Virus record (IMG/VR): IMGVR_UViG_3300028422_000701
DNA length: 64,000 nt
Source: a virus
Lineage: Duplodnaviria; Heunggongvirae; Uroviricota; Caudoviricetes
Direction: 5' to 3' (one strand)
The position numbers were made by a program, and so were the translations under genes. This document shows positions 6,815 to 48,281 of the stretch, in pieces. Within the stretch, counting starts at the first letter, position 1, and each line of letters opens with the position of its first letter. The notes under the pieces are model-generated. The model was not told where the DNA came from. It was given only the letters and a program-made list of their open reading frames with translations, and ran no database searches.

Positions 6815-7357
6815 GTGCCTTACAAAGATGGTAGTGGTAAAACGTTCTTACGAATATATAAAGATGGAACTATAAAAACTAAAGAAGGAAGAGTTTTAAA
6901 ACGCCGTAGACAAAAAGATGGTAATGGTAAATATTTCATTTTTGTAAAAATAAAACACAAAGGTGTTGAATATAATTTTGAATATGACAGGGTAATTTAT
7001 AAAGCTACACATCCTGAATGGGATTACAAAAGTAAGGAACGTGTACTACATAAAGACGACAATTTATTTAATTCGAGACCAAGTAACTTATATTTAGCTC
7101 CACCATATAAGAAACCTAAGAAGTATACAGTGGAAACGAAAAAACTTATGAGGTACTTATATAGGTACACTGAATTAAGTTTACGTGAGATAGGTGAAAT
7201 GCATGGGTGTACAAAACAATTAGTTTGGAAATTTGTGCATGAGGTCGAGGATGAAATTGGAAAAGATAAACTTAATCCTGAGAACTATCATGAAAAGTTT
7301 AAAACACAGCTCAAGTTTGACAAAGTAACGGGAAAATTTATTTCTAGAAATTCATAA
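6815..7357 (+). CDS. HNH (HNH_3-type) homing endonuclease with C-terminal HTH
   Basis: VLHKDDNLFNSRPSNLYLA HNH_3-like motif; sigma-70 region-4-like HTH LSLREIGEMHGCTKQLVWKFV. Confidence 0.5.
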   Translation: MPYKDGSGKTFLRIYKDGTIKTKEGRVLKRRRQKDGNGKYFIFVKIKHKGVEYNFEYDRVIYKATHPEWDYKSKERVLHKDDNLFNSRPSNLYLAPPYKKPKKYTVETKKLMRYLYRYTELSLREIGEMHGCTKQLVWKFVHEVEDEIGKDKLNPENYHEKFKTQLKFDKVTGKFISRNS

Positions 7358-7393: not shown

Positions 7394-7621
7394 GTAAATA
7401 TCACTGAGGAATCAAACCGATTTTCTTAAGGAGGTATTTATGGAGATATTAAAAAGTCTTTATGAACTAGAACTTCTTATTGGATTAGTATCAACTATTA
7501 TTTTTATTTTGTTATTTAATAAATTATCAGAACTTAATAAAAAGTTAATAGTTAAATCAATAAGGGTATTATTAAATAAAGAATAATAATATTTAACCTA
7601 TTAATAGTGAGGAGGAATAAT

Positions 7622-8566
7622 ATGAATAAATATTTAAGTTTAGTACGTTACCCAAAAGATTTAGCAATAGATGCATTAAGTAGTTTTGACGAAATTACTG
7701 TTACTGAAAAAGTAGATGGGTCTAATGCAAGTTTTAAATTGAACAAAGATGGAGAAATTAAATGCTATAGTAGAACTATGGAATTAAAAGGTGAAAACGG
7801 ATTAAATGGTTTCAAACAGTGGGTGTTAAGTAATGTTAAAAAGGAAGATTTAATTCCTAATATTATTTATTTTGGTGAGTGGTTAACAAGACACAAGGTA
7901 GTTTATCCTGAGGAATGTTATAATAAGTTTTACTTATTTGACTTATATGATGAGGTAAGAAACATTTATATAAATCCTTTTAGCGTAACTAGTGTTATTA
8001 ACTTGGTACAACAAACAGAAGGAATGAAGTTTGCTCCTTGTTTATATGCAGGAAAGAACCAACCAATTAGTTTCCTTAAAGAGTTATTAAGTGAAAGTAA
8101 ATTAAGGGAAGGTATACCTGAAGGAATAGTTATTAAGGATTACGACTATAGAAATATTCATAAAGAACTAGTAATAGTTAAGTGGCTTAATGAAGAGTTT
8201 CAAGAGTTTACACCACAAAAACAACCAAAAGTAATAAAAGAATTAACAACTGAAGAGGATATAATGAACGTTTGGTGTTTAAGCACTGTCACACAAAATA
8301 GAGTTGATAAATCAATTTTAAAATTACAGGATGACAATATACTTGAACCAAAGTTGATTATAGACCACATGAAAGACTATATTAATTTAGTAAATAAATA
8401 TGTTTATGAAGATGTAGTTAAGGAAGAATTAGAAGGATTTTTAAGTGAAAACAAAACTATTATCACTGAAGAAGAAGTTCTAAAGTGGTTAGGTAAGTTT
8501 GTAAGTTCACACGTACCAAGAATGATTAAATATTATATTGGTACATTAAACAAAGAAGGAGAATAA
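7622..8566 (+). CDS. ATP-dependent RNA ligase, Rnl2-like
   Basis: nucleotidyltransferase motif I TEKVDGSN; motif IV EGIVIKDYD; RBS gaggagg before ATG 7622. Confidence 0.6.
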   Translation: MNKYLSLVRYPKDLAIDALSSFDEITVTEKVDGSNASFKLNKDGEIKCYSRTMELKGENGLNGFKQWVLSNVKKEDLIPNIIYFGEWLTRHKVVYPEECYNKFYLFDLYDEVRNIYINPFSVTSVINLVQQTEGMKFAPCLYAGKNQPISFLKELLSESKLREGIPEGIVIKDYDYRNIHKELVIVKWLNEEFQEFTPQKQPKVIKELTTEEDIMNVWCLSTVTQNRVDKSILKLQDDNILEPKLIIDHMKDYINLVNKYVYEDVVKEELEGFLSENKTIITEEEVLKWLGKFVSSHVPRMIKYYIGTLNKEGE

Positions 8567-8567
8567 T

Positions 8568-8996
8568 ATGAAAAAAGTTAAGTTAATTTATAATTGGAAA
8601 CATAATAATACAGTATACAAGGCATGGGATAAGATATATATTAGTTTAGAAGGTATTTTAAAGGATATGAATCTTGAAGATGAAAAAGTCGCTGACCTTT
8701 ACATAGCCTTATTAAAAGGTGAAGGTAAATGTACTTTTGAAGGAGTAAATATTGAAAAAATAATTGATACTACTAAAACAAGTACAAGTTCAGATACTAC
8801 GGTAAACCTTTTTAATAGTTTCCAAGATGCAGTTAAATTTATGACAAGTTTTAAAAAACAATATGGAGATAACTTTTTGTATACAAACTTTACTGATATT
8901 AAATATGATAAGGCATATCGTTTAGAAAATAAAAATAAGGATGCTGTTGAATCATTAGTATTACAAGATGTAACAGTTGCTTGTTTAAAAAAATAA
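8568..8996 (+). CDS. hypothetical protein
   Basis: ORF with RBS. Confidence 0.4.
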   Translation: MKKVKLIYNWKHNNTVYKAWDKIYISLEGILKDMNLEDEKVADLYIALLKGEGKCTFEGVNIEKIIDTTKTSTSSDTTVNLFNSFQDAVKFMTSFKKQYGDNFLYTNFTDIKYDKAYRLENKNKDAVESLVLQDVTVACLKK

Positions 8997-8997
8997 G

Positions 8998-10149
8998 ATG
9001 AATAAATATCGTAAACAATTTTTAAACGAAGTACATAATGATTTTAAAGGGGTTTATAAACATTTATGTGAATTAGAAAAGGATGGGTATATTAATATAA
9101 AACAACATGATACCTATCCTAATCTTAAACTTTTTAATTATACCGACCTATGTACATTTGAAAGGAAATGGGACTACTATACACTTAATTGTAGGGGTTT
9201 AGTACTTGACACAGACAAACAAGAAATTGTAGCCCTACCTTTTTTAAAATTCTTTAATTATAATGAATTTGATTCAGAACTTTGTAAACCACAAAATGAC
9301 AATTATGAAGTTTATGAAAAAGTTGATGGTAGTTTAGGTATTGGTTTTTGGTATAATGATAAGGTAATGTGGGCAACACGTGGTAGTTTCACAAGTACCC
9401 AAGCAATCAAAGCACAAGAAATGTGGGACAAAGAAGAACGTGATTACTGTGGTTACGGCTCTACTTTACTTGCAGAAATTGTATACCCTGAGAATAGAAT
9501 TATTATTGACTATGGTAAGTACGAGGGTTTAAAACTATTACAACAAATAGATAATAAAACAGGAAATGAATGCAGTTACGAAAGGTTATTAGAACTTAGA
9601 GATTATACTAACATTGACATAGCTAACAAAGAAGAAATAAACAGTATTGAACAACTTATTGAAAATATAAATAAATATAAAGGTACTGAAAGGGAAGGTT
9701 ATGTTTTAAAGTTTAAAGATTGTACTAGGTTAAAAATAAAGAACAAAGAATACTTAAATATTAATAGATTGGTATTTGGTATTAGTGATAGAAGTTTAAC
9801 CGAAAACTGGAGAGATGGTAAAGCTGAAGACTATTTAAGCTTAATACCTGAAGAGTTTACCGAGAGTATAAAAGAAAAGTTTCAGTTACTTGACAGTGCC
9901 TTATTATATTGGAAACTAGAAGTAGCAAGTGCAGTTAGGTTTATAAATCACTTTCATATTGAAAGAAAAAATGTACAAAAAGAATTAAGGACAATGTTTG
10001 ACCCAATAACTATTAATTGTGTGTTTGAACATTTTAAATGGCAAGAAACTTGTAATACAGTTTACACATATCCCTTACAAGATGCAGTTAACAAACTGTT
10101 AAGGGAACATATATATCGTAACTATAGAGAATATATTAAGGGGGAATAA
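8998..10149 (+). CDS. ATP-dependent RNA ligase, T4 Rnl1-like
   Basis: motif I EKVDGSLG (T4 RnlA has KEDGSL); motif IV EGYVLKF; motif V LKIKNKEY. Confidence 0.55.
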   Translation: MNKYRKQFLNEVHNDFKGVYKHLCELEKDGYINIKQHDTYPNLKLFNYTDLCTFERKWDYYTLNCRGLVLDTDKQEIVALPFLKFFNYNEFDSELCKPQNDNYEVYEKVDGSLGIGFWYNDKVMWATRGSFTSTQAIKAQEMWDKEERDYCGYGSTLLAEIVYPENRIIIDYGKYEGLKLLQQIDNKTGNECSYERLLELRDYTNIDIANKEEINSIEQLIENINKYKGTEREGYVLKFKDCTRLKIKNKEYLNINRLVFGISDRSLTENWRDGKAEDYLSLIPEEFTESIKEKFQLLDSALLYWKLEVASAVRFINHFHIERKNVQKELRTMFDPITINCVFEHFKWQETCNTVYTYPLQDAVNKLLREHIYRNYREYIKGE

Positions 10150-10151: not shown

Positions 10152-10406
10152 ATGTTTACGTTTTATTTAATTGGTTTTTATCTTTTCTTATTTGTAATGT
10201 TTATTGTAAATATTGCTTTAATAAAAGACATTAAATCATTAATTAATAACATATGTAACACAACAAGTTCACTTAATAACCAAGCTTCAAAATTAATGAT
10301 AGGGGTAATAATTTTTACAGGGTTATTATCCTTTGACATTATTTTTAGTGCTATGTGGTTCTTAGTTATAACTCTTTTGTTAATTATAACTATGAACAAT
10401 AAGTAA
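10152..10406 (+). CDS. small membrane protein
   Basis: three hydrophobic segments. Confidence 0.35.
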   Translation: MFTFYLIGFYLFLFVMFIVNIALIKDIKSLINNICNTTSSLNNQASKLMIGVIIFTGLLSFDIIFSAMWFLVITLLLIITMNNK

Positions 10407-10473
10407 TAATTGTACTACTATAAATGATTAAATACAATTATAAAATAACATACTATTTGTAGGAGGAAAGAAA

Positions 10474-12519
10474 ATGAGAAATATAGAGGAATCACAAAAG
10501 GATTTCCAAGATAGATACACCAATATTGTAAAAGATATTGAAAGTATAGCATTAAACGATGCTAAAAATGAAGACAAAAAAAGAGAAAATGGAAACATAA
10601 ATGGTGACAGTGCTATGGGTACTATGTTACAATTTGGAAGTACAGTTGGAAGGGAATTTACTAAAAGTTATTTAATGAATCCCTTGTATAGTAAACTACA
10701 TGATGAAGGTTTAATACATATTCATGATATGGATTTTTATCCTGAGGGTACAACAACTTGTATGCAAATAGATCTTGAAAAATTATTTAAGGAAGGTTTC
10801 AATACAGGGCATGGTTATTTAAGAACACCTAACGACATTATGTCTTATGGTGCTTTAACTGCTATTGCAATACAGGCTAATCAAAATGACCAACACGGAG
10901 GACAAAGTATACCATTTTTAGATTACTATTTAGCTCCTGGCGTATTGAAAACATTTAAAAAACAATATAAACAAACGTATGTTGATATGGCGGATGCTTT
11001 AGGGATTAATGAAGATGAAATTCATAGTGTTATAACATACATAAATAGTTTAAATAGTTTAAAAGAAGCTAAAGAAAATAGTGTTAAATTAACTGATAAT
11101 ATCTTAGTTATGGCTTATGATAAAGCGTTACAAAAAACGGAACGCATTACCTACCAAGCAATGGAAGCGTTAGTTCATAACTTAAATACTTTACACAGTA
11201 GAGCAGGTGCACAAGTACCGTTTAGCAGTGTTAATTTTGGTACAGACATAAGTGATGAGGGAAGAATGGTAGTAAGATCTTTCTTACTGGCAACTGATAA
11301 AGGTTTAGGTAAAGGTGAAACACCTATATTCCCAATATCAATATTTAGGGTAAAAGAAGGAGTTAACTATAATCCAACTGATCCTAATTATGATTTATTT
11401 AAACTAGCTTGTAAAGTTTCAGCTAAAAGGTTATTTCCAAACTTTGTGTTTCAAGATGCTCCATTTAATATGCAATATTATAACCCTAATGACTATAGAA
11501 CAGAAATTGCTACTATGGGATGTCGTACAAGAGTTATGGGGAATGTATGTGGTGAAAGTACAACTCCGGGACGTGGTAATTTAAGTTTTACAACAATTAA
11601 CTTAGTACGTCTAGGAATAGAACACGGTCTAGTTTCAGGTACTGTACAGAAACCTGATTTAGAAGGATTTTATAAAGACTTATTTACTTTAATGGATATA
11701 GTTAAAGAACAACTACTTGAACGTTATAGATGGCAATGTCAAAAACATAAATACAATTTTCCATTTTTAATTAATGAAGGTGTGTGGTATGGTGGGGAAA
11801 GATTAAATAACGATGACCAACTTGATAATGTATTAAAAACAGGAACATTAAGTATTGGATTTATTGGACTTGCTGAATGTTTAGTAGCATTAACTGGTTA
11901 CCACCACGGAGAAAATAATGAAAGTTATAAACTAGGTTATGACATAGTTAAAGAAATGCGTGTTAGATGTGACTATTATTGTAAACAATATGGTCTTAAT
12001 TTTAGTTTACTTGCAACACCAGCAGAAGGTTTAAGTGGTAGATTTACACGTATTGATGCTAAAAAGTATGGTAAAATCATAGGTGTAACTGATAGGGATT
12101 ATTACACAAATAGTTTCCACATTCCAGTTTACTATAATATTTCAGTAACTGACAAAATTCAGTTAGAGGCTCCATTTCATGAACTAACAAATGCTGGTCA
12201 TATTACTTATATAGAACTTGATGGGGATACTTGTAAAAATGTGGATGCATTTGAGAGTGTTATACGTACTATGAAGGAAGCAGGTATTGGTTATGGTGCC
12301 ATAAACCATCCAGTTGATAGAGATCCAGTTTGTGGGTTTAACGGTATTATAGATGATGTTTGTCCACAATGTGGTAGGTCAGAAGGTTCACATAAATTTG
12401 AGCGTATAAGACGTATTACTGGATATTTAGTTGGGACACTTGATCGTTTTAACGATGGTAAACGTGCTGAAGAACACGATAGAGTTAAACATAATTTAAA
12501 AGATAAAGAGGAGAATTAA
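10474..12519 (+). CDS. nrdD: anaerobic ribonucleoside-triphosphate reductase (class III)
   Basis: 681 aa; C-terminal glycyl-radical motif RIRRITGYL and CPQCG zinc ribbon. Confidence 0.85.
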   Translation: MRNIEESQKDFQDRYTNIVKDIESIALNDAKNEDKKRENGNINGDSAMGTMLQFGSTVGREFTKSYLMNPLYSKLHDEGLIHIHDMDFYPEGTTTCMQIDLEKLFKEGFNTGHGYLRTPNDIMSYGALTAIAIQANQNDQHGGQSIPFLDYYLAPGVLKTFKKQYKQTYVDMADALGINEDEIHSVITYINSLNSLKEAKENSVKLTDNILVMAYDKALQKTERITYQAMEALVHNLNTLHSRAGAQVPFSSVNFGTDISDEGRMVVRSFLLATDKGLGKGETPIFPISIFRVKEGVNYNPTDPNYDLFKLACKVSAKRLFPNFVFQDAPFNMQYYNPNDYRTEIATMGCRTRVMGNVCGESTTPGRGNLSFTTINLVRLGIEHGLVSGTVQKPDLEGFYKDLFTLMDIVKEQLLERYRWQCQKHKYNFPFLINEGVWYGGERLNNDDQLDNVLKTGTLSIGFIGLAECLVALTGYHHGENNESYKLGYDIVKEMRVRCDYYCKQYGLNFSLLATPAEGLSGRFTRIDAKKYGKIIGVTDRDYYTNSFHIPVYYNISVTDKIQLEAPFHELTNAGHITYIELDGDTCKNVDAFESVIRTMKEAGIGYGAINHPVDRDPVCGFNGIIDDVCPQCGRSEGSHKFERIRRITGYLVGTLDRFNDGKRAEEHDRVKHNLKDKEEN

Positions 12520-12520: not shown

Positions 12521-12931
12521 ATGAATAAAAATACACAAATGCACGAAGATATAACTACTAATTTACATAAAATATATGTAGCTAAGAATCATGATTATGG
12601 TAATAGTGTACATGATACATATGAAAAATACGGTTTAGTTTCATTTTTAGTAAGAATGGAAGATAAAATAAGTAGAGCAAGAACTTTAGACCAAAAGAAG
12701 GAACAATATGTTTCAGACGAAAAGTTGGAGGATACTTTACTTGACTTAGCTAATTATGCTATAATGGCAGTAATGGAATTAAGATTGGCTAAAGAACAAC
12801 TAACACAAGAGGATTGTGTTGAAGAAAATACCAGTTATTTTGTAGAAGGTTACACTGTTAAGGATAATCAAATTGTAAGTGTAAAAGATAATAAGGTTGT
12901 GGAAATAGATGAAACTAAAATTAGCTGGTAA
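12521..12931 (+). CDS. hypothetical protein, possibly MazG-like all-alpha NTP pyrophosphohydrolase
   Basis: E/D-rich helical pattern RMEDKISRAR...LEDTLLDLANYA; position between nrdD and nrdG. Confidence 0.3.
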   Translation: MNKNTQMHEDITTNLHKIYVAKNHDYGNSVHDTYEKYGLVSFLVRMEDKISRARTLDQKKEQYVSDEKLEDTLLDLANYAIMAVMELRLAKEQLTQEDCVEENTSYFVEGYTVKDNQIVSVKDNKVVEIDETKISW

Positions 12932-13442
12932 TATAGTTTATGATAGTATAGTTGATGGTCCCGGACTACGTGCTACAATTTTTGTACAGGGTTGTACACA
13001 TAATTGTCCGGGTTGTCATAACCCTAGTACACACGACTTAAATGGTGGTACTGAGGTAGACATTAACGATATTATTAATGACTTAGAAAAGCATAAAAAA
13101 CAATTTAGTGGTGTTACTTTAAGTGGTGGGGAACCACTATTACAACAAGATAAATTAATACCTATTTGCTTGTGGTGTATAAATAATCATAAAGATATTT
13201 GGTTATACACAGGCTTTACATACGAAAAAGTAAATACATTAGAAATAATGGATTATATAGATATTGTAGTAGATGGACAGTTTATAGAAAAATACAAGTC
13301 ATATAATTGTTTATTTAAAGGAAGTACTAACCAACGTATAATAGACGTTAAACAAAGTAAAAAATTAAATGAAACATTTTTAAGTATTTACAATGATCAA
13401 CCTACAACTAGTGTAAAGAATAAAAACAATATTTTCATATAA
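12909..13442 (+). CDS. nrdG: anaerobic RNR activating protein (radical SAM)
   Basis: CTHNCPGCHN CxxxCxxC cluster. Confidence 0.8.
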   Translation: MKLKLAGNIVYDSIVDGPGLRATIFVQGCTHNCPGCHNPSTHDLNGGTEVDINDIINDLEKHKKQFSGVTLSGGEPLLQQDKLIPICLWCINNHKDIWLYTGFTYEKVNTLEIMDYIDIVVDGQFIEKYKSYNCLFKGSTNQRIIDVKQSKKLNETFLSIYNDQPTTSVKNKNNIFI

Positions 13443-13447
13443 TAATA

Positions 13448-13476
13448 TTGTTTTTCTCTTACCCTTATGTTATAAT
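13448..13476 (+). promoter_or_regulatory. promoter TTGTTT-N17-TATAAT
   Basis: ttgttt 13448-13453, tgttataat 13468-13476. Confidence 0.5.
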
Positions 13477-13499
13477 GGTATTGTAAAGGAGGGAAGGTC

Positions 13500-13919
13500 A
13501 TGAGTAGTAAACAAAAAACCCCTAAGCAAATAATGAAAACATTATGTAGTGAATTACATAAAAGAGGTTTTATAGTACAATACTATGAAGCTTATAGTAC
13601 GTGTAGTTGTTATATTAAATTAGATTACGGTGCCTGTTATAGTATAAGGGTAAGTGATCACGATGGTTTTAGCCATTTAAAATACCGTTATAATGTTATG
13701 AATGATATAGTAAATAATTACACCGTTTTAGACGAAGGTAAAGAAAGAAAATATTATGGATTTACAGAATTAAATGAATTAGTTAATGATATAGTAAACT
13801 GTAGAGAAAATTTAAAAATTATGATGGGTGAGACGGGGTATAAAGACTATATTAAATCTTATAAATTAAGTGCACAATGTAGTACTGGATTTTGGTCTCA
13901 GTGTCATTTATATAAGTAA
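13500..13919 (+). CDS. hypothetical protein
   Basis: ORF with RBS aaggaggg. Confidence 0.4.
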   Translation: MSSKQKTPKQIMKTLCSELHKRGFIVQYYEAYSTCSCYIKLDYGACYSIRVSDHDGFSHLKYRYNVMNDIVNNYTVLDEGKERKYYGFTELNELVNDIVNCRENLKIMMGETGYKDYIKSYKLSAQCSTGFWSQCHLYK

Positions 13920-13931
13920 AAGGAGAATAAA

Positions 13932-14882
13932 ATGAGTAAAGTAATAATGATGGTAGGGTTGCCTGGAAGTGGCAAAACAACATTTGCAAAAAATGTTTTA
14001 ATGAAAAAAGATAATTATATATATTTAAGTAGTGATGATTTACGTGTAGAATTATTTGGGTTTGAATACCAAACACGTAATGATGAATTATTTAAGGAAT
14101 TAGGTAGAAGATTAAAAGCTGCTATCGTTAATAAGCAAAATGTAATATATGATGCCACTAATATAAATAGAAAAAGAAGAATGGGGTTAATAAGAAATAT
14201 AAAACAATTAGATCCTAATGGTGAAGTTGAAGCATATTGTTTATGTATACCTTATGAATTTATACTTAATAGAAATTTAGTTAGAGAAGAACGTCATATA
14301 CCTGAAGATAAATTAGAACAAATGTATAGAGGTTTTAATGTACCTATAATGTCAGAGGGATTTAGTGATATTACGTTGTTAACTGTTACTGATACAATAA
14401 CTGCAAATGTGTTTAAAGGTTTTGTAGCGGAAACACAAGAAGGACGTTTACATTTAGACTTATTACCTTATTACAATGAATTAAAGGATTATGATCAAAA
14501 GAGTATTTATCATGATTTTACACTAGACAAACATATTGAAAATGTGTTTAATAGAACGTGTGAAATTAAAAATGTAAACGGTGCTTTATGTTTAGCAGCT
14601 GCTTTACATGATATTGGTAAACCTGACTGTTGCACTGTAAAGGAAGATGGTATACACCACGGTTTTGCAGGACATGAAAATGTAAGTGGGTATAAAGCAG
14701 CTATGTTATTAGGTAGATGCGATATATTAAGTAAAGAAACTAAAGATTTAGTTTTAACTATAATTAATTTACATATGATGATTAAAAATAGTGAAATTTC
14801 AGATGACACATTACTTGAATATTGTGGTAGTGAGGAATACCTAAACTATTTAAAAATGTTTAATAATTGTGACCAAAATTAA
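13932..14882 (+). CDS. P-loop polynucleotide kinase-like N-domain fused to HD phosphohydrolase domain (RNA-repair Pnkp-like)
   Basis: Walker A MVGLPGSGKTTFAKN; HD motif AALHDIGKP...HHGFAGHE. Confidence 0.55.
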   Translation: MSKVIMMVGLPGSGKTTFAKNVLMKKDNYIYLSSDDLRVELFGFEYQTRNDELFKELGRRLKAAIVNKQNVIYDATNINRKRRMGLIRNIKQLDPNGEVEAYCLCIPYEFILNRNLVREERHIPEDKLEQMYRGFNVPIMSEGFSDITLLTVTDTITANVFKGFVAETQEGRLHLDLLPYYNELKDYDQKSIYHDFTLDKHIENVFNRTCEIKNVNGALCLAAALHDIGKPDCCTVKEDGIHHGFAGHENVSGYKAAMLLGRCDILSKETKDLVLTIINLHMMIKNSEISDDTLLEYCGSEEYLNYLKMFNNCDQN

Positions 14883-14909
14883 AAAAGTTTAAAAATTTCA
14901 CAAAAAAGT

Positions 14910-14938
14910 ATTTACAAATCAGATCTTATATGTTATAA
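14910..14938 (+). promoter_or_regulatory. strong promoter TTTACA-N17-TATAAT (TG-extended) at the head of the 1-kb ORF-free region
   Basis: tttaca 14910-14915; tgttataat 14930-14938. Confidence 0.55.
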
Positions 14939-14944
14939 TATATA

Positions 14945-15855
14945 CATAAAGTTAATTAAGAGGAAAAAATGTATAAGCAAGCATTTATTAACTTTATACT
15001 GTATAAGCGCAAAAAGACCCCTGTTTTATAAACGTTACCTTTACAGGTAGCGCAAGAAATATAATTATTTTGATAATAATCGTATTTCTTGCAGTACTTG
15101 TAAAAGTACTATTTAGGTACAACCAGCAACAACATAGTAATTAACGATGGTTAATATTTGTCTTTATATCTTTACGATATCAGGACATATCGACACTGTG
15201 TAAAAGTAATTTTACACTTGTCAAAAGCATAAAGAGACTACGGTTTCTTTGTACATTTAAAACGTACCTAGCTATACATATACAAAACTTTAGATACATA
15301 CAGCAATTAAAAATAAAAAAAGAAAATGCCGAAATTTTTCAAAAATGTATCTAGTTAAGTTTAGTTTACTCAAATGTTGATTAGGGTCGATATGGGATTA
15401 AATGCTAGACTTAAAGACAACACTACCTTCGAATGAACTTAATACAAAGGCAAAGTTAATTCTTTGCTTCATGGGCATAATGTCTACTTAACTTGTAAAA
15501 ATGTACCCCAGCACCAGAGCCAAGTAATTGCGGTACATAGGTAGATTAACGAAGTATACATTAGTTAATGATAACAATAGTAATTTGAATTTTCCGGGAA
15601 TTCGAAAGTTTGGGAAACGGTTATTGTTTAAAGTTATACCCATGAAGGAAAGAATTAATTTCCAAAATTAGATACTTACAGCAACTTAAAAATTAGGTCG
15701 CCAAAACACGTATTTGACTAAATACACGTATCTAGATAGTTAAAAAGTATATAATTAGATTCTCACAGCAAACCAAAATAAAGGAAGAATTTGTAAATCT
15801 TAACCAAAAGAATCTAGCATTATATAAATAACTACCTACGGGTAGTTTTCTTTTC
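14945..15855 (+). ncRNA. candidate structured non-coding RNA locus (possible Y-RNA-like partner of the downstream Ro60-like gene)
   Basis: no ORF of 60 aa or more in about 1 kb; promoter at 5' end, hairpin plus T-run at 15831-15855; two perfect 7-bp hairpins with GTAA loops at 15093-15110 and 15199-15216. Confidence 0.3.
15831..15855 (+). terminator. rho-independent terminator
   Basis: aactacc-tacg-ggtagtt hairpin followed by ttcttttc. Confidence 0.5.
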
Positions 15856-15876
15856 AAATAAAAGGAGGAATAAATT

Positions 15877-17412
15877 ATGAATTTTGACAAAGCATTACAA
15901 GAAGAAACAAACGTAGCATTCACTGAAAATGGTGGAGCTAGTAACCTAAGTACGCTTGACAAATGTTTAGACCTGTTTGCACGTTGTGGTAGTATGAGAT
16001 CTGCAAAAGAACAAGATATTATTGAACTTGTAGATAGAGCATATGGTCAAAACAAACAACTTACTTTACTAATTTTATTTTACAACTGTGATATTAAAGA
16101 AGGTTTAGGTGAAAGACGTTTTACACAGATAGCACTTAAATACCTTGCAAACAAAGACCCTAATACGCTTACAAAAGTAGCTAGTTTACTACCTACATAT
16201 AACCGTTGGGACTTAATGTATTGTTTCGTTGGTACACAATTACAAAAAACAGTATTTGGTATAATGAAAGAACAATATGTTTCAGATTTGGACGCTTTAC
16301 AAAAAGATTCTGAAGCCAACATAAGTTTGATTGGTAAGTGGTTAAAAAGTGAAAATACTGAAAGTAAAATATCTCGTAAACTTGCACGTTTAACTATAGA
16401 AGAATTTGGGGTAACTGAAAGACAATATAGAAAAGCATTAGTAACTTTACGTAAAAGAATTAAGATTGTAGAACACAACTTAGTTAATAAAGAATACGCA
16501 AGTATTGATTATGATAAAATACCAGCCAAGGCTCTTATGAAGTATATTAAGGCATTTTATCGTAACGACGAAGCTAAGATAAAGGCTTACTTTGATAGTA
16601 TTGAACGTGGAGAAAAAGAAATTAAAGTTACAGGTATTTACCCACATGATATTTTATATCAAGCAACAGGTGGTGTAACTTGTGGAAATAGTTATTTAAA
16701 ACCTAGAAAAAGTGTTCCAAACCAAAACTACTATAATGAATTATGGAAAAACCAAAAAGATTATATGAAAGAAGATGATCTTACTATGGTTGTAGCTGAC
16801 ACTAGTGCCAGCATGACATCTCCAATTAGTATTAATTCGAATGTTTCAGCATTAGATGTTGCTATGGCATTGGGTATTTATTGTAGTGAAAGATTAAAAG
16901 GACAATACACTAACAAAATGATTACGTTTAGTTCAAGACCTAGTTATGTAACACTAACAGGTGAAGATTTACTAAGTAAACTTAGATGTGTTCCTAGTAT
17001 TGTAGATAACACTAATCTTGTAGCTGTATTTAAACTTTTACTTGACACTGCTAAAAGTTATAACATAGACGAAAAGGAATTTCCTAAAAAGTTACTTATT
17101 ATAAGTGACATGGAATTTGATGCGTCTACCGAAACACGTTATGGTAATAAAAGAACTACTGTGTTTAGAGACATAAAAAATATGTTTGATGGTACAGGGT
17201 ACAAAATGCCACAAATAGTGTTCTGGAATGTTAATAGTAGAAATACACAATTTCCTATAACTGTAAATGACGAAGGGGCAGTACTTATAAGTGGGTATAG
17301 TCCAGTAGCATTAAAGGCAGTATATGAAAGTGAAATATTTACTCCTGTTGATGTTATGATAAAAGCAGTTACAGCACCACGTTACTACCAAGTAATAGAA
17401 AAGTTAAAGTAA
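15877..17412 (+). CDS. Ro60-like protein (TROVE-like N-region plus C-terminal vWA domain with MIDAS)
   Basis: 511 aa; C-terminal vWA with DTSASM (DxSxS) MIDAS motif; N-terminal helical repeat region. Confidence 0.5.
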   Translation: MNFDKALQEETNVAFTENGGASNLSTLDKCLDLFARCGSMRSAKEQDIIELVDRAYGQNKQLTLLILFYNCDIKEGLGERRFTQIALKYLANKDPNTLTKVASLLPTYNRWDLMYCFVGTQLQKTVFGIMKEQYVSDLDALQKDSEANISLIGKWLKSENTESKISRKLARLTIEEFGVTERQYRKALVTLRKRIKIVEHNLVNKEYASIDYDKIPAKALMKYIKAFYRNDEAKIKAYFDSIERGEKEIKVTGIYPHDILYQATGGVTCGNSYLKPRKSVPNQNYYNELWKNQKDYMKEDDLTMVVADTSASMTSPISINSNVSALDVAMALGIYCSERLKGQYTNKMITFSSRPSYVTLTGEDLLSKLRCVPSIVDNTNLVAVFKLLLDTAKSYNIDEKEFPKKLLIISDMEFDASTETRYGNKRTTVFRDIKNMFDGTGYKMPQIVFWNVNSRNTQFPITVNDEGAVLISGYSPVALKAVYESEIFTPVDVMIKAVTAPRYYQVIEKLK

Positions 17413-17417
17413 ATAAA

Positions 17418-17441
17418 ACTCACATAATGTGAGTTTTTTTG
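17418..17441 (+). terminator. rho-independent terminator
   Basis: actcacat/atgtgagt hairpin followed by T7. Confidence 0.6.
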
Positions 17442-17491
17442 TTTACTTTTAAGTAAAAATATGGTATAATATATACATAAGGAGAGTTAAT

Positions 17492-17917
17492 ATGGAAAAT
17501 AATGTAATAGACTCATTTAGTGGTGAGTATGAATTTTTAAGTAATTTTTATGTTAGAGAAATGACCTTTAGAGGTTTAAAATGTACAAGTTCAGAATCGG
17601 CATTTCAGGCTATGAAAACAACCAACTTAGAACAAAGGAAAGAAATTGCTGCTGCTTTACCTTCAAGATCTAAAAGACTTGGTAGAAAAGTACAACTAAG
17701 AAATGATTGGGATTATATAAAAACAAATGTTATGTATGAAATAGTTTTGGCTAAGTTTACACAACATCCTGATTTAAAACAAAAGTTATTAGACACAGGT
17801 GATGCTAAGTTAGTTGAAGGTAATACTTGGGGAGACCAATTTTGGGGTGTTTGCGACGGTGTAGGACAAAATGAACTCGGTAAAATATTAATGTGGGTGA
17901 GGTTTGAATTATCATGA
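17492..17917 (+). CDS. NADAR (YbiA/DUF1768) domain protein
   Basis: FLSNFY...SSESAFQAMK signature of the NADAR fold. Confidence 0.6.
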   Translation: MENNVIDSFSGEYEFLSNFYVREMTFRGLKCTSSESAFQAMKTTNLEQRKEIAAALPSRSKRLGRKVQLRNDWDYIKTNVMYEIVLAKFTQHPDLKQKLLDTGDAKLVEGNTWGDQFWGVCDGVGQNELGKILMWVRFELS

Positions 17918-18714
17918 TAGGACAAAAATCATTAATTAATTATATAGATAATATGAAAGAACTGCCTAAGTGTATTTTATTACAAGGTATTAGGGGTTCT
18001 GACACACATAGTGTGGCTAATTATATTAAAGATAAATACCCTAACCATCAACTTGGTATTATAGACACGTTAGATGTTGAAACATTTAAGTTAATAAATA
18101 TCGAAGCAGAACAAACAATAACACCATTAATAATTTATATTGATAACTTAGATTTAAGTAGTGTACAATGTCAAAATATTGTTTTAAAAGAACTTGAAAC
18201 AGAAAACAATTTAGTTCATTTTATACTTGGTTGTTCAAATAAGGAAAACATAATTAGCACAATAGTTACTAGAAGTGTTACTTTAAAAATGTTACCTTAT
18301 ACTAAACAAGATATGGAACTATACAAAATTAAATACCATATTAAAAATAATATTGATTTAAGTATTATTGAGACACCAAAAGAATTACAGTATTGTGATA
18401 CTATTTACGATAAAATGGAAACAGTTATAAATACAGCTAATGCTTTAGTTTCAAAGTTACCAATAGTAAATACAAGTAACGCTTTAAAAGTTACTAAAAT
18501 TATACTTGACTTAGACACTAACCCAATGTTAATTACTATCTTTACTCACATATTACAAAAAGAAATTATGGGTAGTGATTACTTTTCAACAGGTCAAAAA
18601 ATAAAAATGGAATATATGTTGGAACGTACATTACAGGAGTTAAATAATAATATAATAACACCTAGTAGTGCTTTAGACACCCTTATAATTAATTTAACAT
18701 ATACCATTATGTAA
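17914..18714 (+). CDS. hypothetical protein, possibly degenerate clamp-loader (delta-prime-like) subunit
   Basis: weak AAA-like pattern LLQGIRG and NIVLKELE sensor-like segment. Confidence 0.3.
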   Translation: MIGQKSLINYIDNMKELPKCILLQGIRGSDTHSVANYIKDKYPNHQLGIIDTLDVETFKLINIEAEQTITPLIIYIDNLDLSSVQCQNIVLKELETENNLVHFILGCSNKENIISTIVTRSVTLKMLPYTKQDMELYKIKYHIKNNIDLSIIETPKELQYCDTIYDKMETVINTANALVSKLPIVNTSNALKVTKIILDLDTNPMLITIFTHILQKEIMGSDYFSTGQKIKMEYMLERTLQELNNNIITPSSALDTLIINLTYTIM

Positions 18715-18726
18715 AGGAGGATATTT

Positions 18727-19521
18727 ATGTTATATATAGGAGACAAATCATATTTTAAAAGTAAATATCCTAATTTACAGGAAGTAACTAGTTGTATACA
18801 AATAACAACTAATCAATTAAACTTGTTTAGTACTAACAATAATGAACTTTTATATTGTGGTGATGACATACTTAATGTTGAACCACAAGAAATAAAAGGT
18901 AGTATATGTTTGTTAACAATTGATAAAAGAAGTAAACTATATAAATATTTTAGTAAATTAAATAAAGTAGAATGCGAACCTGAAGTAACTGACCAATTAG
19001 TTAACAACATCTTTCCGGGGGCTAATACTAATTTATTTAAAGGTATTTCATATAGTAGTTTATTAAAAATTAAAACACAATACGATTTAATAAATAACCC
19101 AACAGTAAATGATTTAAAATGGTTAGTAAGTAACACAAACACTGACTGTATATTTGAATGTATTGAACAATTGCTTAATAAGAATGTAGGATTTTTTACA
19201 TTATACAATTATTTAATTGGTTGTGGTGAAAGTAAGTTTAAAATACTTGTAATGGTTAAAAAACGTGTACAACAATTAATACAGGTTTATAACTACAAAA
19301 ATGCGGATATAAACGAGATTGTTAGTAAAACAGGTATAAACTACTATGGGGTTAAGAACTCCCTTGTATTGGTGTTTAAATACAATTTAGTAGAGCTTAT
19401 TACTATATATAATAAGTGTAACAATGTAGAAGTTGGAATTAAGGAAGGTTTATATAGTGAACTAATAGATATAGACAACTTATTTATTAGTATCTTCCAT
19501 AAGGAAAATATATATGAATAG
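18727..19521 (+). CDS. hypothetical protein
   Basis: ORF with RBS aaggagg. Confidence 0.35.
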   Translation: MLYIGDKSYFKSKYPNLQEVTSCIQITTNQLNLFSTNNNELLYCGDDILNVEPQEIKGSICLLTIDKRSKLYKYFSKLNKVECEPEVTDQLVNNIFPGANTNLFKGISYSSLLKIKTQYDLINNPTVNDLKWLVSNTNTDCIFECIEQLLNKNVGFFTLYNYLIGCGESKFKILVMVKKRVQQLIQVYNYKNADINEIVSKTGINYYGVKNSLVLVFKYNLVELITIYNKCNNVEVGIKEGLYSELIDIDNLFISIFHKENIYE

Positions 19522-19541
19522 AAAGAATAAAGGTGGTAAAA

Positions 19542-20711
19542 ATGAATGATGCAATAAGTGTAATTACCAAATTAAAAGAAAAAGGTTTTGAAGCCTATTT
19601 AGTAGGTGGGTGTGTAAGAGATTACATACTTGATAAAGTCCCAAATGATTATGATATTTGTACTAATGCTTCACCTAGTGACATGATGCGAATATTTAAT
19701 TATGAACTTACAAATGGAATTGAATATGGTTGTGTAACAATACTTGAAGGTAGTTCTAAAATACAGGTTACTACATACAGAACTGAACAATACAATGGTG
19801 TTAATAGGTCACCTAGTGTTAGGTATAGTAGAGATGTTAAAGAAGATGTAATTCGTCGTGACTTTACAATTAATGGTTTGTTACAAGATGAAAACTTAAA
19901 TATTATAGACTATGTAGGTGGTGTACACGATTTAGTGTATGAAACAATTAAGTTTGTAGGTGACCCAAGAGAAAGAATTATGGAAGATCCTTTAAGAATA
20001 CTACGAGCAATAAGATTTAGTTGTACCCTTAATTTCACTATCGATCCAGACCATTTTATCATAATGAAAGAATTAAGAAATGAATTAAGTAGAGTAAGTG
20101 CTGAAAGGATACAATATGAATTAAATAAGATGTTTAGTTGTAACAATGTTAAACGTGCTATTTATTTATTAAAGGTACTTGGTTATGATTTTTATGGTTT
20201 ACCTATAAAGGACTGTTTTAACTATGTTACTAATGGAGATTACTTAATGCAACTTGCACATATAAATCATAGTTATTTATATAAAGTAAGTGACGTACTA
20301 AATAGTTTGAAATATACAAAAAGTGAAATTGCTATTGTAATTATGTACATTATGTGTTATAATAATATTGTTAATTCCAGTAACTTGGATGTAACCATAA
20401 AGGAAATAATTAATGAATATGGGGAAACTAATTTTTTAAAGGTTTGCGAATATATACGTAATTGTAATCAACCATTATATATAAATGTTTACTTTAGATA
20501 CAAAAATATTTTAAACAGAAAAGAAGCTTGTACTATTAAGGATTTAAAAATAAATGGGGAAGATTTAATTAAGCTTGATGTACCTGAACACAAACGTGCT
20601 AGGGTATTAAATTATTGTTTAGAAACAATACACGAGTTTCCAGTATTAAATACAAAACCAATGTTAAAAAGTATTATAAAAGACTTTTTACAAGAAGATT
20701 ATTTTGAATAA
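19542..20711 (+). CDS. cca: tRNA nucleotidyltransferase (CCA-adding enzyme)
   Basis: LVGGCVRDYIL and DYDICT head-domain motifs; ATG 19542 after aaggtgg RBS. Confidence 0.7.
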   Translation: MNDAISVITKLKEKGFEAYLVGGCVRDYILDKVPNDYDICTNASPSDMMRIFNYELTNGIEYGCVTILEGSSKIQVTTYRTEQYNGVNRSPSVRYSRDVKEDVIRRDFTINGLLQDENLNIIDYVGGVHDLVYETIKFVGDPRERIMEDPLRILRAIRFSCTLNFTIDPDHFIIMKELRNELSRVSAERIQYELNKMFSCNNVKRAIYLLKVLGYDFYGLPIKDCFNYVTNGDYLMQLAHINHSYLYKVSDVLNSLKYTKSEIAIVIMYIMCYNNIVNSSNLDVTIKEIINEYGETNFLKVCEYIRNCNQPLYINVYFRYKNILNRKEACTIKDLKINGEDLIKLDVPEHKRARVLNYCLETIHEFPVLNTKPMLKSIIKDFLQEDYFE

Positions 20712-20727
20712 TAAAGGTGGAGATTAA

Positions 20728-21528
20728 ATGAAATACTTTGTAGTAAGTGACATACACGGACATTTTAAGGAATTAAAGTATTACTTATACAAGGCAGGGT
20801 ATAGATACAAAAACCCTAAACATAAGATTATTGTATGTGGTGATATATTTGATAGGGGTAATGAGTCTTTAGAAGTACTTACCTATGTTAGAAGGTTACA
20901 ACGTAAAGATAAACTTATACTTGTAAGAGGTAACCACGAAAATTATTTTCAAATGTTCTTAGAAGGTGCAAGCATTGCATGGCATTGGTTTAATAATGGT
21001 TTTTACAAAACAGTTAATAGTTTAACAGGTTATGCAGACCATTTTAAGAGTACTATGGAATTATGGGAAAATAACCAAAGTGTTGAAGCTAATAATGTAA
21101 CTTACGATACTTACTTGAAGTATGAAAATTGGGTACGCGGTGATTTAACATCATACTACCATTGGTTATTACCTTGGTTACAACAATTACCTGATTATTA
21201 CGAAACAGAACACTATATATTTACCCACGCAGGTATTGACACAAATACTTATGATTATAGAACTCCAACTAGTAAAAGTTGGTTTGAATTACAACAAGAT
21301 GATGGAAGTTTCTTTAATAAAAGTATTTGTAATACTGAAAAAACTGTTGTTATTGGACATTTTGCAACAGACAGGTTACGTGATATGTATAATATACCTT
21401 TAACTAACACCACTAATGACATATTAGTTAGGGAAGATAAAAAGGTAATTGCTATTGATACCTGTACAATATTAACAAAAAGAATAAATGTTTTAATTAT
21501 AGAAGAAGAAGGAGAAGACAAACAATGA
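20728..21528 (+). CDS. Ser/Thr protein phosphatase-family metallophosphoesterase
   Basis: SDIHGH, GDIFDRG, GNHE motifs. Confidence 0.65.
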   Translation: MKYFVVSDIHGHFKELKYYLYKAGYRYKNPKHKIIVCGDIFDRGNESLEVLTYVRRLQRKDKLILVRGNHENYFQMFLEGASIAWHWFNNGFYKTVNSLTGYADHFKSTMELWENNQSVEANNVTYDTYLKYENWVRGDLTSYYHWLLPWLQQLPDYYETEHYIFTHAGIDTNTYDYRTPTSKSWFELQQDDGSFFNKSICNTEKTVVIGHFATDRLRDMYNIPLTNTTNDILVREDKKVIAIDTCTILTKRINVLIIEEEGEDKQ

Positions 21529-48114: not shown

Positions 48115-48191
48115 TGGTGCTCCCGATAGGACTCGAACCTACAAGACCTTGTTTCTAAGACAAGGATGTTTACCAGTTTCATCACAGGAGC
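48115..48191 (-). tRNA. tRNA with anticodon UAG (Leu anticodon) but class-I (short variable arm) shape
   Basis: acceptor GCTCCTG/CGGGAGC plus A plus CCA; anticodon arm CCTTGT-CTTAGAA-ACAAGG; T-arm GTAGG-TTCGAGT-CCTAT. Confidence 0.55.
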
Positions 48192-48196
48192 ATATT

Positions 48197-48276: not shown

Positions 48277-48281
48277 ATATA

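Follow-up and report, generated by a model that had tools for sequence, protein, structure and literature searches.

The window analyzed here, a 64,000-nucleotide stretch, is phage DNA that encodes tail proteins, a DNA polymerase, a primase, helicases, and 25 tRNA genes. Its region from 13000 to 21000 had no megablast match among GenBank phages, indicating a phage without a close sequenced relative. On the + strand, an open reading frame (ORF) at 15877 to 17412 runs from an ATG to a stop codon and encodes a 511-amino-acid (aa) protein, exactly as delimited by the first-pass annotation, with a ribosome-binding site (GGAGG, 15864 to 15868) 8 nt 5′ of the ATG. The RNA ligases, polynucleotide kinase, and CCA enzyme that the same annotation had named as neighbors were all recovered by Pfam or PHROG matches (Table 1). 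A match of the kinase-HD gene to bacterial Pnkp, in its kinase part, stayed below threshold. In Listeria phage LP-124, too, the DUF2828 gene has a NADAR/DUF1768 gene downstream. The tRNA array of the window is 30 kb away from the DUF2828 gene and on the opposite strand.

Table 1. Features of the locus and its neighborhood (positions in the window)
Feature	Coordinates	Strand	Basis or content
Two RNA ligases, Rnl2-type (7607-8566) and T4 Rnl1-type (8998-10149)	7607-10149	+	PF09414 E 4.6e-21, PF09511 E 3.8e-21
Polynucleotide-kinase-like P-loop kinase fused to HD domain	13932-14882	+	AAA_33 E 1.3e-19, HD, PHROG 505 'polynucleotide kinase'
Predicted sigma-70-type promoter	14911-14939	+	TTTACA, 17-nt spacer, TG-TATAAT; 11/12 consensus, extended -10
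Leader 5′ part, outside the handle-RNA family	14946-15112	+	Three adjacent near-perfect hairpins, 15034-15110
U1	15113-15271	+	5′ strand TTAGGTAC (15113-15120), CCAGCAA (15123-15129), 3′ strand GTACCTAG (15264-15271)
U2	15290-15354	+	TTAGATAC, AT, ACAGCAA, one hairpin, GTATCTAG
Structured spacer, U2 to U3, no recognized family	15356-15667	+	Inverted repeat I2; folding z -4.1
U3	15668-15735	+	TTAGATAC, TT, ACAGCAA, two small hairpins, GTATCTAG
U4	15755-15817	+	TTAGATTC, TC, ACAGCAA, anticodon-arm-like hairpin (15785-15801, loop UUUGUAA), GAATCTAG
Terminator-like hairpin (7-bp stem), then T-tract TTCTTTTC	15830-15847	+	Between RNA array and GGAGG
Helical TROVE-like (HEAT-repeat-like) domain, residues 1-303	15877-16785	+	Pfam DUF2828, AlphaFold model
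vWA domain, residues 304-488	16786-17340	+	Pfam DUF7788; MIDAS D308-x-S310-x-S312 encoded at 16798-16812
C-terminal helices, residues 489-511, and stop codon	17341-17412	+	AlphaFold model
Intrinsic-terminator-like hairpin closing the unit	17415-17437	+	
NADAR-domain protein	17492-17917	+	Pfam NADAR E 1.9e-28
CCA-adding enzyme/poly(A) polymerase family	19533-20711	+	PolyA_pol head domain E 4.5e-31, RNA-binding domain
Metallophosphatase resembling phosphatase module of bacterial Pnkp	20728-21528	+	

The noncoding leader and its four repeated units

Just upstream of the gene lies a noncoding stretch of about 1 kb (14883 to 15876) that the first-pass annotation had missed and that holds no ORF longer than 51 aa. 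It begins with the best promoter-like site within 14700 to 17700. Judged by such signals, 14911 to 17437 appears to be a single expression unit encoding both the protein and an RNA array, with the next predicted promoter (17442 to 17470) following the hairpin that closes it. No promoter-like site was found between the terminator-like hairpin at 15830 to 15847 and the ATG, so the DUF2828 gene is probably expressed by read-through past this hairpin.

The leader is predicted to be strongly structured, with a minimum free energy (MFE) of -215 kcal/mol versus -158 ± 6 in shuffles (z -9.1). In its 5′ part, sliding 200-nt windows gave z -5.3 to -6.5, and 15025 to 15118 gave z -7.2. In the spacer, a 27-bp long-range stem pairing 15453 to 15481 with 15633 to 15661 (helix probabilities 0.67 to 1.0) closes a branched RNA of about 210 nt that carries two CGAA motifs. 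Rfam at gathering score returned tRNA matches only across the whole window, and Rfam 15 at a permissive E of ≤10 returned nothing relevant, and no YrlA or Y RNA, within 14700 to 17700. An nhmmer search of 82 related loci with the entire 1-kb leader as query found no primary-sequence similarity; the conserved element described below is too short, and too much a matter of structure, for a search of this kind.

Four units, U1 to U4, are arrayed on the + strand at 15113 to 15817, each built from an 8-bp terminal stem that shows compensatory changes, the heptamer ACAGCAA next to it (CCAGCAA in U1), and an insert that differs between units. The four repeats and their complementary partners occur nowhere else in the 64 kb. 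U1, which was found by repeat and pattern scans and whose insert consists of four hairpins, forms its terminal stem with a pairing probability of 0.98 in the whole-leader fold; folded alone it gave z -6.4 with the handle formed. The U2 handle forms in both the MFE and centroid structures, and U3 gave z -3.0, again with the handle formed. The U4 handle differs from those of U2 and U3 by a compensatory A-U to U-A change. The covariance model R1 scored U2, U3, and U4 at 47.5 bits (E 3.6e-9), 40.0 bits (E 2.6e-7), and 46.7 bits (E 5.7e-9), respectively, E values that hold partly by construction since all three units sat in the R1 seed alignment.

A predicted Ro60-like ring protein

Two Pfam families matched the 511-aa protein far above their cutoffs: DUF2828 in the N-terminal part (E 2.7e-30, 106 bits against 29) and DUF7788 at residues 304 to 488 (E 1.6e-39, 135.9 bits against 27.1). 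PHROG 850, 'RNA-binding protein' (phrog_850), matched residues 2 to 504 (E 2.8e-118), and NCBIfam had no model for the protein. The DTSASM motif, on which the first-pass annotation had based a C-terminal vWA domain, spans residues 308 to 313, and D308, S310, S312, T379, and D411 do not vary across the 47 sequences of a family alignment, giving a complete MIDAS (DxSxS...T...D) and bearing out that assignment. All family-invariant residues are present in the 511-aa protein, and the conserved basic or aromatic residues of its helical domain include R41, R80, R110, K154, W155, and R192. Consistent with the helical N-terminal region proposed earlier, the AlphaFold model (pLDDT 87.8, pTM 0.88) is all-helical to about residue 295 and then adopts an alpha/beta vWA fold, such that a ring of helical (HEAT-like) repeats is closed by the vWA domain. 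In the crystal structure of the Thermus phage phiLo Ro60, the helix equivalent to the C-terminal one rejoins the HEAT ring (PMC12135203).

The Ro60 architecture that the first-pass annotation had read from this layout holds for the predicted ring and its vWA closure, but not for the TROVE profile, since PF05731 gave no match at E ≤ 10 with this protein or with any of 47 family members. Its expected Pfam vWA match was likewise obtained through DUF7788, and only weakly through VWA_2 in the C-terminal part (E 9e-4, under the curated cutoff), and vWA_Ro60 was touched by just 3 of the 47 family members (E ≥ 0.029). Neither phmmer nor the 47-sequence profile recovered Ro60 from the PDB sequences, among which there were no matches at all. 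Homology with Ro60 thus rests on the fold. By its predicted fold, this 511-aa member of the DUF2828/DUF7788 family is an RNA-binding protein with the ring shape of Ro60; the original observation is confirmed as real and is not a chance pattern, and its Ro60-like reading of the protein is supported. We consider it very unlikely that the resemblance is superficial and that the protein is a generic vWA/MIDAS protein, e.g., an assembly cochaperone or a virion component, for which one could cite the missing TROVE match, the detection of the Listeria homologue CKA15_055 in purified virions by mass spectrometry (PMC12282133), and the 'vWFA protein' label that some GenBank records give to DUF2828 homologues. 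That Listeria homologue matches Rsr by HHpred (PMC12282133).

[quoted passage not shown] Bas63 gp130, a DUF2828 protein, is 32% identical to the 511-aa protein, and the closest among 5.8 billion proteins is at most about 40% identical. An IMG/VR scan with the single protein found no close relative, and the IMG/VR relatives were obtained by an alignment-based scan instead. tRNA arrays, RNA ligase, kinase, and NADAR neighbors recur in the family, but compared with its other members the protein of the window is divergent and unusual in its 30-kb distance from the tRNA array.

A family of handle RNAs linked to DUF2828 genes

We defined a handle RNA as a unit with a 7- to 8-bp terminal stem, whose 5′ strand is separated by two nt from ACAGCAA and whose 3′ strand is followed by a G, lying on the strand of a DUF2828 gene, a definition that all four units of the window fit. 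In the consensus, the stem is WAGRYRC/GYRYCUWG, and ACAGCAA is single-stranded in the predicted fold. Units are short (median, 66 nt), occur in arrays of 2 to 5 or more, and carry interchangeable inserts. At least one was present in 71 of the 83 IMG/VR loci, where the stem-N3-CAGCAA-stem pattern occurred 203 times on the gene strand versus 20 times on the other strand; 20 controls with permuted hexamers gave 7 to 31 occurrences in place of the 203. Of these units, 73 lie ≤300 nt 5′ of the start codon. The internal hairpin, which had not been used in selection, was paired in 82% versus 30 to 42% in slid controls; a short helix around it, P2, found no support at 52% paired.

In 80 independent GTDB loci, R1 gave 163 hits at E ≤ 0.01 in 75 loci, every one of them on the gene strand and all except one upstream of the gene, many at about 100 nt or less from the start codon. 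All seven handle pairs covary in these loci, and the internal hairpins covary too. R1 units also lie beside the gene and on its strand in Listeria LP-124 (three tandem units, L083 5653-5920; a relative of the CKA15 phage), Escherichia coli wV8 and Bas63, Mycobacterium LeBron, Staphylococcus S-CoN_Ph2, Campylobacter Los1, Bacillus Izhevsk, and Klebsiella phi1_175008. The Bas63 units lie at 82069-82141, 82236-82299, and 82691-82764 of MZ501086. Detectable units were absent from 12 of the 83 IMG/VR loci, 5 of the 80 GTDB loci, and Vibrio phage ValKK3. Short multicopy units flanked by inverted repeats might also be repeats at the DNA level, e.g., small mobile elements bounded by terminal inverted repeats or sites where proteins bind DNA. 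However, the strict orientation to the gene (203 versus 20 and 163 versus 0), arms that covary so as to keep pairing rather than a fixed sequence, covarying internal hairpins, and G-U pairs on the gene strand, whose counterparts on the opposite strand would be C-A mismatches, make this extremely improbable.

A reverse test that started from the RNA motif alone found a DUF2828 gene in the same stretch for 20 of 45 full units, compared with 1 of 78 motif matches lacking the 3′ partner (Fisher p 1e-9). These comparisons have shown the predicted handle RNA to be a conserved family tied to DUF2828 genes in phages of Firmicutes, Proteobacteria, and Actinobacteria; Rfam holds no such family, and we found none described in the literature searched. 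DUF2828 genes lie within or beside tRNA arrays in 49 of the 83 loci, so any noncoding RNA typical of such regions would look linked to them, and Ro60 does not need a Y RNA to bind misfolded RNAs (PMC4201824). The protein may act alone on misfolded or damaged RNAs, as Ro60 does, with the adjoining RNAs as unrelated passengers of a tRNA/noncoding-RNA region. We hold this to be quite unlikely, since the units of the window abut the gene although its tRNA array is far off and on the other strand, the motif predicts the gene in the reverse test, and the GTDB hits keep so closely to the upstream gene strand.

Two other roles for the units were considered and rejected. As promoters they fail because a -10-like hexamer lies ahead of U3 and U4 alone and 185 units share no conserved upstream motif, and as a generic flank of phage tRNA genes because only 5 of 482 tRNAs lie inside a unit.

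Many inserts resemble parts of tRNAs. Among the 185 units, 86 have a hairpin with a U33/R37 7-nt loop. CUUUUAA is the most frequent of these loops (17 units), and about 38 of them fit C-U-NNN-A-A strictly; the anticodon arm copied most often is that with the tRNA-Lys UUU loop. The tRNA-Lys(UUU) anticodon is the target of PrrC. T-arm-like hairpins occur in 33 units, and a complete tRNA lies within a single unit. No tRNA-like module is recognizable in about half of the units, and in the window only U4 has one, which is imperfect.

A candidate Ro/Y-RNA-type particle

Ro60, in humans an RNA-binding autoantigen, and its Y RNAs form a classic, poorly understood RNA-surveillance particle, in which the Y RNA is bound on the outside of Ro60, whose central hole takes up the ends of misfolded RNAs. 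The present locus resembles Ro60/Rsr systems (YrlA, or phiLo Ro60 with Yrl1 and Yrl2) in the predicted fold, with its helical ring, vWA domain, and MIDAS, and in a gene linked to RNA-repair genes, e.g., RtcB, ligases, and kinases. Y RNA genes adjoin those of Ro60 homologues on the same strand, and Y RNAs have a terminal stem formed by their 5′ and 3′ ends together with a tRNA-mimicking module (PMC4201824, PMC12135203). The handle RNAs, as candidate partners, likewise lie beside the DUF2828 gene on its strand, with a predicted terminal stem and, in many units, a tRNA-like module. The two differ in that the DUF2828 protein has no TROVE match or sequence-level similarity to Ro60; the handle RNAs match neither Rfam YrlA nor any other Rfam family, have a 7- to 8-bp stem with ACAGCAA in place of the Ro-binding bulged helix with its GNCGAA motif, and come as arrays of 2 to 5 or more short units with interchangeable inserts. 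No RNA partner of the phage Ro-like protein is named in the literature searched, and the handle family is a candidate. Two recent papers place Y RNAs among nearby tRNAs or abundant transcripts, as a guess; CKA15_055 lies downstream of extremely abundant noncoding transcripts, and the paper gives CKA15 locus tags 059 to 061 no coordinates by which to place them on the three LP-124 units (PMC12282133).

From their colocation and co-orientation, the handle RNAs are probably the partners of the Ro-like protein. We favor, with moderate confidence, the reading that the locus encodes a Ro-like ring protein and a handle-RNA array that form a Ro/Y-RNA-type ribonucleoprotein of a distinct lineage, active in conflicts over tRNA/RNA damage. 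By analogy with Ro60 and the terminal stem of Y RNAs, the protein would bind the handle to form Ro/Y-RNA-like particles, and the inserts, many of them resembling anticodon arms, T arms, or whole tRNAs, would offer tRNA-like surfaces to tRNA-recognizing enzymes. Such a particle could be a platform bringing damaged tRNA or other RNA to the kinase/phosphatase, Rnl1, Rnl2, and CCA-adding enzyme. It could instead act on nucleases and defense effectors of the host, as a decoy or a regulator.

Alternatively, the units may act in cis, as processing, stability, or attenuation signals of leader and tRNA-operon transcripts or as autoregulatory sites at which the protein acts on its own mRNA, with no trans-acting particle. 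In the window they sit in a 5′ leader between the promoter and the terminator-like hairpin directly before the ribosome-binding site, an arrangement that also fits cis-regulation, while in Felix O1-like phages they lie between tRNA genes; nor are individual units preceded by a conserved promoter motif. However, so few tRNA genes of these loci fall within a unit (5 of 482) that the units are not a general tRNA-processing cassette, and, unlike a 5′-UTR regulator, they are upstream of the gene in some phages and downstream in others. ACAGCAA is invariant across hosts of three phyla, with the DUF2828 protein as the only constant neighbor. This pattern argues for a conserved reader encoded by the phages, and the autoregulatory variant would still need the protein to bind the handle. 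We therefore regard a purely cis-acting role as rather unlikely.

Returning to the particle, the enzymes around the gene (kinase/phosphatase, Rnl1- and Rnl2-type ligases, and CCA-adding enzyme) are comparable to the polynucleotide kinase and RNA ligase 1 with which T4 repairs tRNAs in the face of anticodon nucleases, PrrC among them, and the tRNA-Lys(UUU) anticodon arm is reproduced in many handle RNAs of related phages; T4, in contrast, has neither a Ro-like protein nor handle RNAs. An antidefense role would fit the report that Bas63 gp130 counters ppl and is needed for growth on ppl-carrying hosts (PMC11482910). As counterpoints to a role against RNA damage, the authors of that study proposed that ppl attacks DNA, not RNA (PMC11482910), and CKA15_055 is found in virions (PMC12282133).

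We also put forward, tentatively and as the less probable course, that handle RNAs are a modular display in which the ring grips the invariant handle while the interchangeable insert shows a tRNA anticodon arm, a T arm, or a whole tRNA. They might then serve as a programmable decoy or sensor against tRNA-targeting defense nucleases of the PrrC/RloC, PARIS, or retron type, or as a channel delivering cleaved tRNAs to the phage ligases, with each phage carrying a set of inserts suited to its hosts' defenses.

If the handle RNAs are the partner of the Ro-like protein, they would account for many of the intergenic "gaps" and spurious small ORFs seen where phages carry tRNA genes, and Ro-type particles would be tied to the contest in which tRNAs are cleaved and repaired. 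The handle family is short, easily recognized, strictly gene-linked, and often tRNA-mimicking, and, if its RNAs are the partner, binding, structure, and genetics would be testable at once in tractable phages, with the ppl-dependent phenotype of the Bas63 protein already available for such tests.

A DUF2828 protein with a Ro60-like predicted fold

The 511-codon ORF named in the first-pass annotation was found to run from an ATG at exactly 15877 to 17412 on the plus strand, with a GGAGG ribosome-binding site 8 nt upstream. Genes for tail proteins, DNA polymerase, primase, helicases, and a sliding clamp, together with 25 tRNA genes, identify the window as phage DNA. In Pfam, the helical part of the protein matched DUF2828 (E = 2.7e-30) and the vWA part, residues 304 to 488, matched DUF7788 (E = 1.6e-39). 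Of the two Pfam families suggested beforehand, VWA was represented by a VWA_2 match, but below its cut-off, and TROVE by no match at E ≤ 10 for this protein or in any of 47 family members. PHROG 850 ("RNA-binding protein") matched end to end (E = 2.8e-118), and NCBIfam had no model for the protein.

An AlphaFold2 model built from the 47-sequence protein alignment (mean pLDDT, 87.8; pTM, 0.88) was helical to about residue 295, followed by a vWA alpha/beta domain and C-terminal helices, consistent with the two-part architecture that had been proposed. The expected DTSASM motif lies at residues 308 to 313, and the MIDAS is complete, with D308, S310, S312, T379, and D411 invariant in the alignment. 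The suggested comparison with Ro60 was borne out by Foldseek, whose top four matches in the PDB were all Ro60, i.e., human 9nf8_A (E = 1.5e-8), 9kop ("Trove domain"), Xenopus 1yvp_B, and 9nen; those ranked below were vWA-only, with E > 0.01. PDB sequence searches with the single protein and with a profile found nothing. Given the Ro60 matches and the complete MIDAS, the modeled protein is Ro60-like in architecture, yet the sequence searches did not link its family to TROVE.

Taken alone, the protein belongs to a known phage family, of which it is an ordinary though divergent member. Among the candidates scored, more than 5,500 proteins belonged to the family at E ≤ 1e-5, and the nearest non-self relative was approximately 40% identical. 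There were at least 499 DUF2828-family loci in IMG/VR and at least 560 in GTDB representative genomes, many of the latter probably being MAG-binned contigs of phage or prophage origin. The 709 GenBank phage records with a member include Felix O1-like, Listeria P100-like, Staphylococcus, Campylobacter, Bacillus, and KVP40-like Vibrio phages, and cluster L mycobacteriophages, whose copies are already annotated as "Ro-like RNA binding protein." Acidaminococcus massiliensis and Selenomonas sputigena carry a DUF2828 gene on chromosome-scale records, one a complete genome, with no handle RNA (described below) detectable within 3 kb of the gene.

A survey confined to TROVE-annotated proteins found Y RNAs (YrlA) with tRNA-like domains near the Ro60 genes of bacteria and phages, on the same strand (PMC4201824), and the Ro60 of Thermus phage phiLo binds two upstream Yrl RNAs and the host PNPase (PMC12135203). 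The DUF2828-type Listeria phage protein CKA15_055, an HHpred match to Rsr, is present in virion preparations; non-coding loci upstream of it give up to ~67% of phage transcripts, which the authors thought might be Y RNAs (PMC12282133). The PhageMaP preprint describes Bas63 gp130 as "structurally similar to Ro60" and required against the ppl defence, and guesses that some tRNAs downstream of it are Y RNAs (PMC11482910); we found bas63_0130 to be a DUF2828+DUF7788 protein 32% identical to ours (E = 5e-81). Over-expression of LeBron gp53 is moderately toxic (PMC13148394).

Gene neighborhood and structured leader

The RNA ligases, polynucleotide kinase, and CCA enzyme reported nearby were all recovered by profile matches. 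The kinase and metallophosphatase ORFs match different modules of bacterial Pnkp (TIGR04075), both below threshold, and, judging from these matches, seem to form a split end-healing system with the Ro-like gene between its two halves. LeBron likewise has genes for both an RNA ligase and a polynucleotide kinase (PMC13148394). In Listeria phage LP-124, RtcB, NADAR/DUF1768 (10377-10880 of locus L083), and an RNA ligase lie downstream of the DUF2828 gene. NADAR also comes right after the Ro-like gene of the window, and the linkage may be conserved.

Features of the window around the Ro-like gene
Feature	Coordinates	Remark
Rnl2-type ligase	7607-8566	upstream
T4 Rnl1-type ligase	8998-10149	upstream
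NrdD/NrdG		upstream
DUF1599 ORF ("nucleotide modification associated domain 1")	12521-12931	between nrdD and nrdG
Polynucleotide-kinase-like kinase with HD domain	13932-14882	upstream
Sigma-70-type promoter	14911-14939	best of region; 11/12 matches, extended -10
Three adjoining near-perfect hairpins	15025-15118	leader start; z = -7.2; outside handle family
U1	15113-15271	159 nt; 3' strand 15264-71
U2	15290-15354	65 nt; 3' strand 15347-54
Branched RNA	15453-15661	between U2 and U3; z = -4.1
U3	15668-15735	68 nt; 3' strand 15728-35
U4	15755-15817	63 nt; 3' strand 15810-17
Hairpin and T-tract	15830-15847	just 5' of ribosome-binding site
Terminator	17415-17437	after Ro-like gene
Next promoter	17442	start
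NADAR	17492-17917	directly after Ro-like gene
Clamp-loader subunits		downstream
CCA-adding enzyme	19533-20711	downstream
Metallophosphatase resembling bacterial Pnkp phosphatase module	20728-21528	downstream
25-tRNA array	48115-54207	minus strand

DUF2828 genes sit inside co-oriented tRNA arrays in the IMG/VR loci (L003-L082), with nearly all tRNAs on the gene strand; tRNA genes were found within 6 kb in 63 of 83 loci and within 1.5 kb in 49. Most relatives differ in this from the window, whose array is 30 kb away from the Ro-like gene and on the opposite strand. The array includes three tRNA-Met(CAU), one tRNA-Ile(UAU), and unusually long calls, i.e., a 101-nt "tRNA-Met" (52841-52941) and an 83-nt tRNA-Val.

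No ORF longer than 51 aa was present between the kinase stop and the ATG of the Ro-like gene. The RNA of this leader (14946-15860) folds with an MFE of -215.4 kcal/mol, compared with -158.3 ± 6.3 for dinucleotide shuffles (z = -9.1), and the leader was the strongest outlier in a 200-nt sliding fold scan across 12-20 kb. Four copies of TTAGATAC-NN-ACAGCAA are present in the leader, each beginning a unit (U1 to U4) that ends in the complementary GTATCTAG; the motif with fewer than 3 mismatches is absent from the rest of the window. The copies show compensatory changes (TAGGTAC/GTACCTA, TAGATAC/GTATCTA, and TAGATTC/GAATCTA), and every unit forms the terminal stem when folded singly. We call this stem with its motif the handle. 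R1, a covariance model of the handle RNA whose seed contained U2 to U4, had no significant match in the window outside 15288-15819.

The branched RNA between U2 and U3, approximately 210 nt, is closed by a 27-bp long-range stem and has two CGAA motifs, recalling the classical Y/Yrl layout of a long terminal stem and CGAA-containing loops. It had no match in Rfam and no similar sequence in related loci.

Handle RNAs as a conserved, gene-linked family

We scanned 82 related loci for a 7-bp stem strand followed by N3, CAGCAA, N15-150, and the complementary strand. The pattern matched 203 times on the gene strand versus 20 on the opposite one (7 to 31 matches for 20 permuted hexamers), 73 matches being ≤300 nt upstream of a start codon, and at least one unit was present in 71 of 83 loci with the window counted. 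The possibility that the handle is a tRNA flank was rejected because only 5 of 482 tRNA genes lay inside a unit.

As CAGCAA and perfect pairing were imposed by the scan, they are not independent evidence; the strand and position biases, an internal hairpin, flanking conserved bases, independent loci, and a reverse test are. In the 59-sequence unit alignment, CAGCAA was invariant, as the scan dictated; the features not imposed were an A before the motif (78%), a G following the 3' strand (83%), and, past the motif, a tract poor in G. The handle covaries at 7 of 7 pairs, and an internal 5-bp hairpin, which took no part in selecting the units, was 82% paired versus 30 to 42% with slid partners, with double changes at every pair. 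Handles differed by a Hamming distance (of 7) of 2.8 within a genome versus 3.6 between genomes, even with unrelated inserts.

Outside its seed, R1 found units on the gene strand upstream in Listeria LP-124 (three in tandem, 70-340 nt from the gene) and Campylobacter Los1 (two, just upstream), just downstream in Mycobacterium LeBron (two) and Staphylococcus S-CoN_Ph2 (three in tandem), and adjoining the gene in Bacillus Izhevsk (four) and Klebsiella phi1_175008 (two). In E. coli wV8 and Bas63, they occupy gaps between the first downstream tRNA genes, in Bas63 not the tRNAs themselves. The match was weak in Sinorhizobium phiM19, and R1 found none in Vibrio ValKK3. Among 80 GTDB loci, R1 gave 163 matches at E ≤ 0.01 in 75 loci, all on the gene strand and 162 of them upstream. 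The 93 best independent matches had handles 99.8% paired with double changes at 7 of 7 pairs, in an alignment that is model-fitted and favours pairing. In the reverse test, scanning IMG/VR for AAGACACNNACAGCAA returned 123 instances; a DUF2828 gene was in the same stored stretch for 20 of the 45 with a 3' partner versus 1 of the 78 without (Fisher p = 1e-9), and these 20 were always on the gene strand, at a median distance of ~300 nt.

The family thus defined, covarying and strictly linked to the gene, had no match in Rfam 15 and no description in the literature searched, although absence there is not proof of novelty. Small "hypothetical protein" CDSs in GenBank phages overlap units or share their gaps (L209, 5510-5599; L295, 2949-3101; and, from the literature, Listeria CKA15_059-061) and are probably mis-annotated non-coding RNA genes.

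The main rival explanation, in which the units act only in cis, is weakened, since they lie upstream of the gene in some phages and downstream in others, and ACAGCAA is conserved across hosts of three phyla. By analogy with Ro60 and the Y RNA stem, we propose that the Ro-like protein may bind the handle and that the handle RNAs would act in trans, the particle possibly acting on tRNA or RNA damage or on host defence effectors.

tRNA-like inserts of the units

The interest lies in the putative partner-RNA family and its tRNA-mimicking repertoire, rather than in the protein alone. Units have a median length of 66 nt (5th to 95th percentile, 53 to 131). A T-arm-like hairpin with a TTCGAAT or TTCAAAT loop was found in 33 of 185 non-redundant units, and a further 58 have a 5-bp hairpin with a 7-nt loop carrying U in its second position and a purine in its sixth, approximately 38 of the recorded loops being strictly C-U-NNN-A-A. 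The commonest loop, CUUUUAA (17 units), is mostly inside GACUUUUAAUC, the tRNA-Lys(UUU) anticodon arm, and other loops match the anticodons GUU, CAU, GCU, UUC, and UCC. U4 has an anticodon-arm-like hairpin with a UUUGUAA loop and a mismatched closing pair. In longer units, we read the 7-bp handle as standing where a tRNA has its acceptor stem, which would put the conserved G at the discriminator position. One unit, at 7771-7874 of locus L001, encloses a whole tRNA (7793-7860; Rfam tRNA model score, 58 bits; no ARAGORN call). In the same locus, over-long Rfam "tRNAs" of 118 nt (7100-7217) and 123 nt (9651-9773) flank the DUF2828 gene.
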